Of a stretch of DNA of 64,000 bases, positions 16,838 through 21,788 are shown piece after piece. The stretch is from contig CP058896.1 of assembly GCA_013415865.1 (NCBI GenBank), forward strand, positions 971,957 through 1,035,956. Reading direction: 5' to 3'. The number at the start of each line of letters is the position of its first letter. Positions within the stretch are counted from its first letter, which is position 1. This stretch comes from Methanomassiliicoccales archaeon. GTDB taxonomy: Archaea; Thermoplasmatota; Thermoplasmata; Methanomassiliicoccales; UBA472. Position numbers and translations under genes: made by a program. Under the pieces are notes generated by a model. The model had not been told where the DNA came from. It did not search any database and was given only the letters and a program-made list of their open reading frames with translations.

Positions 16838-17024
16838 TTATTGATTATTAATTATAATATAGCATATTAAATAAATCAATGCCAGTATTTATAATATATA
16901 TTATAATAATATTATTTAACTGCAAACATGACGCTTGGGACCGAAACTCTTTTTTATATTCGAAACGGTAACCACCATAAGGAGTGATACCTTAGGGTAT
17001 ATCCTTTGTCAAGGGGAGTCTCAT

Positions 17025-18131
17025 ATGAAATCATTCATCACAGATGCGATGTCAAAGGCGGGGCCTTCTAGCGCCCCAGAGATGATGAGCAGCTATAGGA
17101 GCCCGACCGCGGACGATGAGGAGCTCGAGCGCATACTCATGAGCCTAAAGACCAATGTGAAGATCGTTGGATGTGGTGGCGGGGGATGCAACACCATAAA
17201 CAGGCTTTATGAAGCGAACATCAGGGACGCGGAGCTGTTCGCGCTCAATACCGATGCACAACATCTGCTGATAGTCCGCGCCAACAAGAAGATACTGTTG
17301 GGCCGGAGGAGCACTCGTGGACTTGGTGCTGGCGCATTGCCTCAGGTAGGCGAGGAGGCCGCCCGTGAAGCTGAGGAGGACATACGCAAGGCGCTAACGG
17401 GGGCGGACATCGTCTTTGTGACGGCCGGTCTGGGAGGAGGTACTGGGACAGGGTCTGCCCCTTATGTTGCCCAGATTGCAAAGGACATGGGTGCATTGAC
17501 CGTTGCAATAGTCACATCGCCGTTCAAAGCGGAAGGTGCGATAAGAACTGAGAACTTCGAGTGGGGCCTCGAAAGGTTACGCGGGATCGCTGATACGGTC
17601 ATCGTTGTCCCGAACGAGAAGCTCCTAGAGCTGTGCCCCAGGTATTCCCTCAATGCGGCGTTCAAGGTCGCTGATGAGGTCCTGATGAGGGCCATCAAGG
17701 GCATCACCGAGCTCATAACCAAGCCAGGACTGGTAAACCTGGACTTCAATGACCTTAGGACGATCATGAAGGGCGCAGGGGTCGCCATGATCGGGATGGG
17801 CGAGGGCGAGGATGACGACAAGGTCGAACAGGCGGTCAGTGAAGCGATCAACTCCCCGCTCATCGACGTCGACATCACAGGAGCTAGCGGCGCCCTCATA
17901 AATGTCACCGGCGGCGAGGACATGACGGTCAGCGAGGCTGAGAAGGTCGCCGAGATAATTCAGTCCAAGATCAACCCGAACGCCAGGATCATCTGGGGGG
18001 CGTCCATCGATCCATCCCTTGAGAACAAGATGAGGGTGATGGTGGTCGTCACCGGTGTCAAATCCAAATATGTCCTTGGACATAAAGAAGGACAGGCCCA
18101 GAAGGTGATGGGGGTAGACTTCATTAAGTGA
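17025..18131 (+). CDS. ftsZ: Cell division GTPase FtsZ (copy b, in the conserved ftsZ-secE-spt5-rpl11 synteny)
   Basis: ORF track 16935..18131, trimmed to ATG 17025 ([11 protein letters not shown]...) with a GGGGAG SD 8 nt upstream. Contains [27 protein letters not shown] and NLDFNDL. Confidence 0.93.
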
Positions 18132-18197: not shown

Positions 18198-18413
18198 ATG
18201 GACATAATCGAGAAATCCCAGGAGGTCCAAGACGGGATCGAAGAGAGGGTCAGGAACCTCGGGAAGGGCAAGTATGGGCGCGTCCTGAAGATGGCGCGCA
18301 GGCCCACCAACGACGAGTATTCCAAGATCGTCCTGATAACTGGCATAGGCATAGTCCTGATTGGATTGCTAGGTTTCGCCATATATTGGATATGGAAGTC
18401 CGTCTCGCCTTGA
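18198..18413 (+). CDS. secE: Preprotein translocase subunit SecE / Sec61-gamma
   Basis: ORF track (71 aa). It has a single C-terminal TM (IVLITGIGIVLIGLLGFAIYWIW) and the conserved position before spt5. Confidence 0.85.
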   Translation: MDIIEKSQEVQDGIEERVRNLGKGKYGRVLKMARRPTNDEYSKIVLITGIGIVLIGLLGFAIYWIWKSVSP

Positions 18414-18414
18414 C

Positions 18415-19335
18415 ATGGCGGAAGGATGTTACGCTCACAAACGAGGTTTGATCATGAATCAAGACGCGGACCAGCAGGCAGCCCCAATATCGACGCGCGG
18501 TGGAAGCGTGGTCATGAGCGGAGAGAGCGGAAGGCTCAACGTCACGGCCGGAAGCGTCGCTAACTGGAACATACAGATCAGAACAGAGGACGCTGCCAAG
18601 AAGAACGTTGTGGTGCGCGTGAACATCAACTACGAACCAGGCGCGCCCGAATGGGATGTAAAGCTCTCCGATAGGATGGACGTGCTTTACGACTCGGCCT
18701 CACTTGGTGAACCGGTAGTGAAGCTTCAGCTTGACAACCGCCCGAAGGACCTCAAGCTGAGCGCCGAGGCGCCACGCGGTGCCAGGATAGATGATGTCGT
18801 AAAGATATCATTGGAGGCCTTCCCTGAAGGGGACGCGTCATCGATTAGCAGGATGGAATTCTCGGCCTATGCTGTCCCTTCCGTCCTGATCCTAAAGACC
18901 TCGATAGGTCATGAGAGAAATGTTGCAGATGGCGTTGCAAGCAAGGCCAAGGCCGCGAAAGACCTTGGTAACAGCCTTGGCATATTCGCCATCTTGGCCC
19001 CTGAGAAGCTGGACGGGTATGTGATCGTTGAAGGGATGAACACAGACCTTGTTCGCGAGACGGTCCGAGGGGTACGGAAATCAAAGGGACTGGTAGAGGG
19101 AGAGACCAAGTTCAGCGAGATAGAGCACTTCCTGACGCCGAAGCCGCTGGTTTCTGGTATAATGGAGGGTGATGTCGTCGAGCTGGTGGCCGGACCGTTC
19201 AAGGGAGAGAAGGCCAGGGTCCAGAAGATCGATGAGAGTAAAGAGGAGATCACGGTGGAGCTCTTTGAGGCGCTGGTACCGATCCCAGTGACCGTCCGCG
19301 GAGACCATGTGAGGGTCCTCGAGAAGGAGAAGTGA
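18415..19335 (+). CDS. spt5: Transcription elongation factor Spt5 (NusG family) with an in-frame N-terminal extension of about 146 aa
   Basis: ORF track (306 aa). Residues from about 147 onward ([25 protein letters not shown] ... [22 protein letters not shown]...) form a normal NGN+KOW Spt5. The upstream 438 nt are open in the same frame starting 1 nt after the secE stop. The canonical-length alternative start is ATG 18853. Confidence 0.85.
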
Positions 19336-19339
19336 GAAA

Positions 19340-19819
19340 ATGCCAGAAACGATCGAGGTGCTGGTGGATGGCGGCAAGGCCACACCAGGTCCGCCGCTCG
19401 GGCCCGCATTGGGACCGACGGGGATCAACGTTGTACAAGTAGTGCAGAAGATCAACGAGAAGACAAAGGACTTCGCCGGCATGAAGGTCCCGGTCAAGGT
19501 CATCATCGACCCTAAGAACAAGTCGTTCGAGATCAAGGTCGGAACGCCACCGACCTCCGCCCTCCTCTTCAAGGAGCTTGGCATCGAGAAGGGCTCAGGG
19601 GCTCCCAAGGTGACCAAGGCAGGGAACATAACGATAGAGCAGGCCATCAAGGTCGCCGAGATGAAGAAGGACAGTCTCATGGGTAAGGACCTGAAGAACC
19701 GCGTCCTGGAGGTAATCGGCACTGCTGTCTCCTGCGGCATCACCATCGAGGGCAAGGACCCCAAGGAGATGCAGAAGGAGATAAAGGATGGAAAGTGGGA
19801 TGCCAAGTTGGTCGGATAA
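19340..19819 (+). CDS. rpl11: 50S ribosomal protein L11
   Basis: ORF track (159 aa). Contains [21 protein letters not shown]. Confidence 0.95.
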
Positions 19820-21479: not shown

Positions 21480-21788
21480 ATGGAGTACATATACAGCGCC
21501 CTGGTTCTTCACGCCGCTGGTAAGCAGATTTCCGAGGACGCCGTCGCTGCCGTATTGAAGGCCGCCGGCGTCGAGGCCGATGCCGCTAAGGTAAAGGCCT
21601 TGACCGCATCCCTCGAGGGTGTCAACATCGATGAGGCGATCGCCTCCGCGATGGTTGCCGCCGCCCCTGCCGCAGCCCCGGCCGCCGCCGGTGCAGCACC
21701 TGCCGCTGAGCCAAAGAAGGAAGAGAAGAAGGAGGAGGCCGTTTCCGAGGAAGAGGCCGCCGCTGGACTCTCTGCCCTCTTCGGCTGA
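21480..21788 (+). CDS. rpl12: 50S ribosomal stalk protein L12 / P1
   Basis: ORF track (102 aa). Ala/Pro hinge, a KKEEKKEE stretch and the conserved C-terminal GLSALFG. Confidence 0.95.

Follow-up and report, generated by a model that had tools for sequence, protein, structure and literature searches.

A class-wide extra N-terminal domain, probably an immunoglobulin-like sandwich, on the transcription elongation factor Spt5 of Thermoplasmata

This report concerns the spt5 gene in a stretch of 64,000 nucleotides (nt) from a Methanomassiliicoccales archaeon (assembly GCA_013415865.1, contig CP058896.1, positions 971,957 to 1,035,956 of the forward strand). The whole stretch is referred to below as the window, and positions are counted from its first letter. 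According to the list of open reading frames (ORFs) and their translations, the gene order in the window is ftsZ-secE-spt5-rpl11-rpl1-rpl10-rpl12. The spt5 frame (18415..19335, + strand) is open over 306 codons, and its first ATG, at 18415, lies 1 nt past the secE stop. An earlier prediction from the letters of the window had proposed that the first 146 codons of this frame encode an N-terminal extension resembling a beta-sandwich. The features of the gene, followed by those of its neighbors, are:

18454..19335, + strand: spt5 as most likely translated, 293 amino acids (aa) plus stop; start aligned with the closest relatives, homologues of 284-293 aa named Spt5
18415..18453, + strand: in-frame leader of 13 codons, probably untranslated; unconserved, low in third-position GC and without a Shine-Dalgarno sequence before ATG 18415
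18443..18447, + strand: Shine-Dalgarno-like GAGGT, 6 nt 5' of ATG 18454, read directly
18484..18876, + strand: predicted immunoglobulin (Ig)-like beta-sandwich of the NEW3/CARDB type, 11 strands, acidic; residues 11-141 counted from Met14 (AlphaFold2, Foldseek, hhalign)
18646..18654, + strand: PEW motif (P65 E66 W67); Trp invariant in 38 of 38 class members
18769..18795, + strand: APRGARIDD loop (A106-D114); P107 invariant, G109, R111 and D114 at 84-92%
18880..19134, + strand: NGN domain (Pfam Spt5-NGN, TIGR00405, AlphaFold2 model)
19165..19260, + strand: KOW motif (Pfam KOW)
16935-18131: ftsZ, of the conserved archaeal cluster
18198..18413, + strand: secE, 71 aa, the gene 5' of spt5, with stop TGA at 18411-18413 (ORF list; conserved secE-spt5-rpl11 order)
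19340..19819, + strand: rpl11, the next gene, then rpl1, rpl10 and rpl12 (ORF list, translations)

Spt5/NusG is the only transcription factor common to all cellular life, and the archaeal protein is treated in the literature as a minimal NGN-KOW protein of about 150 residues. Judged by its family matches, the C-terminal half of the ORF is such a canonical Spt5. TIGR00405 matched the frame with 170.8 bits (cut-off 69.95), residues 160-306 covering model positions 3-144 of 145, and both Pfam domains scored over their cut-offs (NGN, PF03439, 56 bits, residues 160-240; KOW, PF00467, 35.4 bits, residues 251-282 of the 306-aa frame). In Foldseek comparisons with canonical archaeal Spt5 structures (3p8b from P. 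furiosus, 9bct from T. kodakarensis, 4zn1 and 4zn3 from M. jannaschii; 147 aa) the same NGN and KOW parts were found at E 1e-13 and 37-44% identity (3p8b_B, E 1.6e-13). The secE-spt5-rpl11 context is likewise that of canonical archaeal Spt5, the SecE match of the upstream ORF (Pfam, 21.3 bits) lying slightly below the cut-off of 22.7. The gene is present as a single copy in the window's own genome (one match), which also encodes the partner protein Spt4 (PF06093, 54.5 bits, a 70-aa ORF at G000:C1:140589-140762). What sets the protein apart is that it is about twice the canonical length and has an Ig-like domain of about 130 residues before the NGN. Residues 1-146 of the 306-aa frame gave no family match in Pfam or TIGR.

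That the frame is open for 438 nt upstream of Met147 can be read directly in the sequence, as the original prediction had stated, and its estimate that a stop-free run of 146 codons has a chance of roughly 0.3% agrees with the computed value (P = 0.0025, at a window GC of 0.545 and a stop probability of 0.040 per codon). The evidence for translation is comparative. A six-frame search of 40 relatives and the window's genome, covering 7 families and 17 genera of the order, found the protein at full length, together with its extension, in all 41 genomes; the open frames measure 269-384 aa and the matches begin at query residues 4-34. More than 2,400 homologues are present in the protein database, and those that match best are Methanomassiliicoccales proteins of 284-293 aa named Spt5 or NusG. 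Third-position GC content is 0.684 in 18454-18852 and 0.681 in the NGN-KOW part, and only codons 1-13 (18415-18453) deviate, at 0.46. Nei-Gojobori ratios of nonsynonymous to synonymous substitution (dN/dS), calculated for unsaturated pairs, were 0.12-0.19 for the extension and 0.01-0.09 for NGN-KOW, which indicates purifying selection on the extension, weaker than on NGN-KOW. The Spt5 N-termini of relatives and third-position GC, both named as checks in the original prediction, thus speak for a translated N-terminal domain, as do its conservation across the class and its predicted fold. The alternative, an untranslated secE-spt5 spacer with Spt5 starting at ATG 18853 (Met147), can draw on the existence of that ATG about 10 residues before the canonical domains, but is refuted by the class-wide protein conservation, the dN/dS values, the coding-like third positions, the confident fold, the lack of a stop codon in most relatives and the replacement of Met147 by L, I, K or R, and retains practically no probability.

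The extension itself stands; its proposed start and its length of 146 aa do not. Codons 1-13 have no counterpart in the alignment of relatives, whose matches set in at query residue about 9-30, and the closest relative (G001) has stop codons in the equivalent region, one of them immediately before its MNQNADQQ start. The window protein aligns to this start with MNQDADQQ (MNENVEQQ in another of the closest relatives), and the aligned start codons in relatives are preceded by GAGGT, GGGGT, GAGGG or GGAGAGG, equivalent to the GAGGT at 18443-18447 in the window. Since the leader is unconserved and the conserved start is accompanied by this GAGGT, the true start is most likely ATG 18454 (Met14), giving a protein of 293 aa with an extension of 133 aa rather than 146. 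Nor does the canonical part begin at about Met147, as had been assumed: by TIGR00405, whose position 3 corresponds to residue 160, it begins around residues 156-160 of the 306-aa frame. The alignment of relatives is continuous through the unconserved Met147, which sits within the last strand of the extra domain.

Structure prediction supports the proposal that the extension is a beta-sandwich. In the full-length AlphaFold2 model, computed from an alignment of 36 full-length homologues, residues 11-141 (from Met14) are all-beta, with predicted local distance difference test (pLDDT) values of 84-94 by block. The isolated domain, modeled from 38 N-domains taken from named genome records, was confidently predicted as an all-beta domain of eleven strands (pLDDT 92.1, predicted template modeling score 0.85). 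The last Ig strand (132-141) is followed by a single residue and then by the first NGN strand (143-148), leaving no linker. In a Foldseek search of the PDB with the isolated domain the best matches were Ig-like sandwiches (query-normalized TM-score 0.48-0.61), among them the N-terminal domain of GH123 glycosidases, the Ig linker of a Micromonospora sialidase, PapD-like/ASH domains and the PorA N-domain. A search of PDB sequences with the N-domain profile returned no related solved structure, only a chance match to a protocadherin (E 0.33).

The more specific assignment in the original prediction, to CARDB/NEW3-type domains, is borne out by profile comparisons. Sub-threshold Pfam matches among 38 relatives were to NEW3 (PF10633; 16 relatives, best E 2.5e-4), Ig_VWA7 (10) and FixG_C (9, best E 6.1e-6), and a precomputed FixG_C match already stands on some Thermoplasmatales Spt5 database entries. 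The window's own domain had no PF10633 match at E <= 1 in Pfam, and the gathering score was not reached. A search of 1.84 billion representative proteins with the domain profile gave 1,049 matches, consisting of long Spt5 proteins and of giant multi-repeat proteins whose repeats Pfam assigns to NEW3, CARDB or FixG_C. Whole-protein E-values of these giants sum over repeats (about 29 matches of about 5 bits each in P0124) and are no evidence on their own; single full-length domain matches in repeat proteins scored 25-30 bits. The best single-domain matches outside Spt5 (P0138 and P0144) are hypothetical proteins from Thermoplasmata metagenome-assembled genomes (MAGs), the former with a C-terminal membrane helix, and two motifs of the Spt5 domain recur in their repeats: (G/E)W, and (V/I)TAPxxAxxG with an alternating strand after it. 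In hhalign, the Spt5-domain profile aligned with NEW3 repeats of Thermoplasmata surface proteins at 99.2% (E 2e-19, 111 columns), with the caveat that the repeats used had themselves been selected among matches to the profile; 8 of the 12 independently match PF10633. By these comparisons the domain is a diverged NEW3/CARDB-type Ig domain; outside Spt5, its closest kin are repeats in membrane-anchored surface proteins of Thermoplasmata. For this reason it looks like a surface-protein module that was recruited into the cytoplasm.

The conserved residues of the domain fall in the same two places. PEW corresponds to GW/EW in the NEW3 repeats of surface proteins, and the APRGARIDD loop aligns with their (V/I)TAPxxAxxG signature, so the loop is probably structural. 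NEW3/NPCBM-associated (PF10633), CARDB, FixG_C and Ig_VWA7 domains thus share with it both the motifs and the kind of beta-sandwich. They occur, however, as tandem repeats in secreted or membrane-anchored proteins, whereas the Spt5 domain is a single copy in a cytoplasmic factor: no signal peptide or hydrophobic segment was found in the window protein, whose maximum Kyte-Doolittle average over 19 residues (1.28) lies within the NGN. The domain is acidic, with a net charge of -3 in the window protein, a family median of -7 at an isoelectric point (pI) of 4.9, and none of 38 members basic.

Several candidates for independent copies of the domain were discarded. The stand-alone matches P0130 and P0141 are gene fragments that end within the first NGN strand or helix; P0123, with Ig and KOW parts and no NGN, comes from a read assembly and is a singleton, and P0137 is chimeric, containing a fragment of L1. 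A 137-aa ORF just upstream of spt5 (1706-2557) in one relative (G428:C3, L163, 1218-1631) reproduces the first ~115 residues of spt5 exactly, followed by a tail identical to that of the ORF at 838-1143, and is probably an assembly duplication and not a gene.

The extra domain extends well beyond the order. A sample searched with the N-domain profile gave matches in all genomes of the window's order and, in other families of the class, in 9 of 9 genomes of family f16, 3 of 4 of f19, 23 of 27 of f24 and the single genome of f21, all in frames of about 270-420 aa continuing into NGN-KOW. Neither of the two f25 genomes matched, yet there the domain is plain on direct reading (LEW ... STPKGSALGD). 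All families of the class that were inspected have it. A search seeded with a member of f24 added the following named cultured organisms:

Ferroplasma: Spt5 of 297-298 aa
Acidiplasma: Spt5 of 299 aa
Picrophilus oshimae: Spt5 of 285 aa
Thermoplasma acidophilum: Spt5 of 299 aa
T. volcanium: Spt5 of 288 aa
Thermogymnomonas: Spt5 of 293 aa
Oxyplasma: Spt5 of 293 aa

Genome records with a long Spt5 also include Methanomassiliicoccaceae, Methanomethylophilaceae, Methanoplasma and many MAGs labeled "Thermoplasmata archaeon". Pairwise distances of the Ig part and of NGN-KOW are correlated (Mantel r 0.75, a value reached in 0 of 999 permutations), and since the two parts vary together, the data fit a single fusion that predates the divergence of the class Thermoplasmata and has since been passed on vertically together with NGN-KOW, the Ig part evolving faster. 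Even genomes of only 1.2-1.5 Mb keep the domain, which therefore arguably matters to the cell. Outside the class, the N-domain profile matched only large surface-type ORFs, and Spt5 there mostly has short frames of about 150-260 aa or carries other additions. In two families of another class (f38 and f56; L151, L152, L156, L157 and L164) an N-terminal domain of about 130 aa with the pattern MxxAFVAFVRxxEKxLLxxR..DFPGxWDGxxGVGD appears Nudix-like (Pfam NUDIX, 18.3 and 14.6 bits against a cut-off of 21.1). It resembles the Ig domain in its position directly before the NGN, its size and its occurrence in the same phylum, but differs in fold, origin and class. Taken together, we are fairly confident that spt5 in the window encodes one polypeptide of 293 aa, in which an acidic NEW3/CARDB Ig sandwich of about 130 residues is fused without a linker to an otherwise normal Spt5, and that this arrangement is ancestral in Thermoplasmata.

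A variation of the N-terminus was seen in Thermoplasmata MAGs outside Methanomassiliicoccales (L086-L133). In these, a conserved short peptide of hydrophobic-acidic character, (M)LGLFD.., MGLLDDF.. or MSLLEGL.., is followed by a K/E/P-rich tether of 20-30 aa and then by the Ig domain. The arrangement resembles an inverted ribosomal stalk tail; rpl12 of the window (21480-21788) ends in ...KKEEKKEE...GLSALFG. The Spt5 of the window is without the peptide.

Accessory domains on this factor are known from bacteria. Domain DII of T. maritima NusG (2xhc, 2lq8) and the insert of Aquifex aeolicus NusG (1m1g) are likewise lineage-specific additions, and DII, which has been reported to aid recruitment to the elongation complex and to stabilize the complex of NusG with the polymerase (PMC7819879), offers the best functional analogy. 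The bacterial domains are, however, inserted within the NGN, whereas the archaeal domain precedes its first strand, and a Foldseek search with the isolated Ig domain has none of 2xhc, 2lq8 and 1m1g in its top 50 matches; the two kinds of addition are of independent origin. Searches of PDB sequences and with Foldseek found no solved Spt5/NusG chain with a folded Ig-like domain before the NGN. In eukaryotes, Spt5 has an acidic N-terminal region that is generally regarded as unstructured. It is a similar acidic addition before the NGN, described as an acidic region with no domain named (PMC7819879), whereas the domain in the window is compact, folded and without sequence relation to it. Full-text literature searches combining Spt5/NusG with Thermoplasmata, Methanomassiliicoccales or an Ig-like extension brought up no paper on such an architecture, these lineages go unmentioned in a 2026 survey of elongation-factor domains, and databases annotate the long proteins simply as Spt5. 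Spt5/NusG with an accessory domain specific to one lineage is known as a kind; its class-wide Ig version is, as far as can be told, undescribed.

In the Spt5/NusG proteins studied so far, the NGN grips the clamp coiled-coil of RNA polymerase (PMC7289017). Being acidic and rigidly attached beside the NGN, the Ig domain may give the elongation complex a surface for protein-protein docking, and in the likeliest version it would make a second contact with RNA polymerase or with Spt4 that stabilizes or tunes Spt4/5 binding. By analogy with DII we put this second contact forward tentatively. Several observations weigh against it. The most conserved motifs (PEW, APxGARYGD) appear to be the structural signature of NEW3 domains and indicate no functional surface, and the domain changes much more quickly than NGN-KOW, with a mean identity of 29% as against 66%. 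The relative orientation of Ig domain and NGN is unreliable in the full-length model, in which the NGN-KOW part has pLDDT values of 50-80. On the side of the polymerase, no class-specific insertion was found in the first 450 residues of Rpo1N when six lineages with the Ig domain, four with a short Spt5 and one with the Nudix-like version were compared, and the Rpo1N clamp coiled-coil does not differ between lineages that have the Ig domain and those that lack it; this part of the polymerase therefore gives no sign of a co-evolved docking site. The idea that the domain replaces Spt4 was rejected, as the PF06093 match is present.

Rather than a second polymerase anchor, the domain could be a platform that recruits the ribosome, the termination nuclease aCPSF1/FttA or a chromatin protein, a possibility that we regard as rather doubtful. 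Ig-like domains often mediate protein-protein contacts, and Spt5/NusG is a known hub, its KOW contacting S10 and FttA contacting Spt4/5 in the T. kodakarensis complex 9bct (PMC11616081). That no co-evolved insertion turned up within the first 450 residues of Rpo1N also counts in favor of a platform, and the conserved peptide that other orders of the class carry on a flexible K/E-rich tether resembles a device for recruitment. This peptide is, however, absent from the window's protein, the partners named are candidates, and divergence as fast as that of the domain (29% mean identity) fits a conserved universal partner poorly.

A further proposal starts from TFE, an initiation factor that is a competitor of Spt4/5 for the clamp: the Ig domain would compensate for the loss of TFE, Spt5 having taken over part of its work there. 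Thermoplasmata are stated to lack both TFE alpha and TFE beta (PMC7289017). Consistent with this, the window's genome has no TFE-alpha match over the Pfam/NCBIfam cut-offs and TIGR00373 matched none of the 25 class genomes sampled; it was equally silent in the families with a Nudix-like Spt5 (f38, 0 of 9; f56, 0 of 15), and strong TFE matches were obtained in several families with a short Spt5, for example in all nine f40 genomes and in several of f59. Other short-Spt5 families nevertheless also lack a convincing TFE (f46, 1 of 9, and f49, 1 of 16, at about 20 bits each; f35, 2 of 8, weak), which makes the loss of TFE wider than the gain of additions to Spt5, and the correlation rests on very few independent events. 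Compensation for TFE is accordingly unlikely. The same holds for an extended scenario, in which a surface repeat recruited at the root of Thermoplasmata is now required and, by a new contact with clamp or stalk, would alter the way Spt4/5 joins the complex and let Spt5 act as early as initiation or promoter escape where TFE is missing.

It is also improbable that the Ig domain is an autoinhibitory or regulatory lid, covering the clamp-binding face of the NGN or the KOW until recruitment. Interdomain autoinhibition has precedents in T. maritima NusG and in RfaH (PMC7819879), and attachment without a linker keeps the domain near the NGN, but no interface was confidently predicted and a rigid fusion leaves little room for a switch between open and closed states. 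Binding of nucleic acid (upstream DNA, the non-template strand or nascent RNA) might be thought of since known complexes place the NGN close to upstream DNA and the non-template strand (PMC7289017), yet for a domain that is acidic family-wide (median net charge -7, pI 4.9, 0 of 38 basic) it appears very improbable.

A conserved extra folded domain right next to the polymerase-binding surface of Spt5 is shared by a whole class, which includes the long-studied Thermoplasma acidophilum and the Methanomassiliicoccales methanogens of the human gut. The addition may help to explain transcription in archaea without TFE, and it would be a case in which an Ig-type repeat from outside the cell has been put to new use in the cytoplasm. 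Since sister lineages carry different additions at the same spot, the N-terminus of the NGN is an evolutionary insertion point for lineage-specific control of elongation.

Some further observations were made on the polymerase and on Spt5 elsewhere in the phylum. The window begins with the 5' part of rpo1N (RNA polymerase subunit A'; 1-862, - strand), which runs off its start, and directly upstream of that gene lies the 3' part of rpo2 (subunit B; about 859-2334, - strand) with an overlap of 4 nt. In one f56 lineage with a Nudix-like Spt5 (L171, G265), Rpo1N has two clamp-head insertions of about 11 and 12 aa and a divergent stretch past residue 400; none of these features is present in the other ten lineages compared. 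The Spt5 of f38 and f56 also contains an insertion within the NGN. Two lineages (L154 of f66 and L155 of f70) have, instead of a folded domain, an acidic low-complexity stretch with repeats of EEKTEETPPEDTIDEKEEK before the NGN, which by in-frame reading, part of it masked in L155, recalls the acidic N-terminus of eukaryotic Spt5. Finally, in L153 (f45, genomes of about 1.2 Mb) Spt5 has no N-terminal addition and carries an apparently helical insertion of about 150 aa within the NGN, between the first helix and the next strands.

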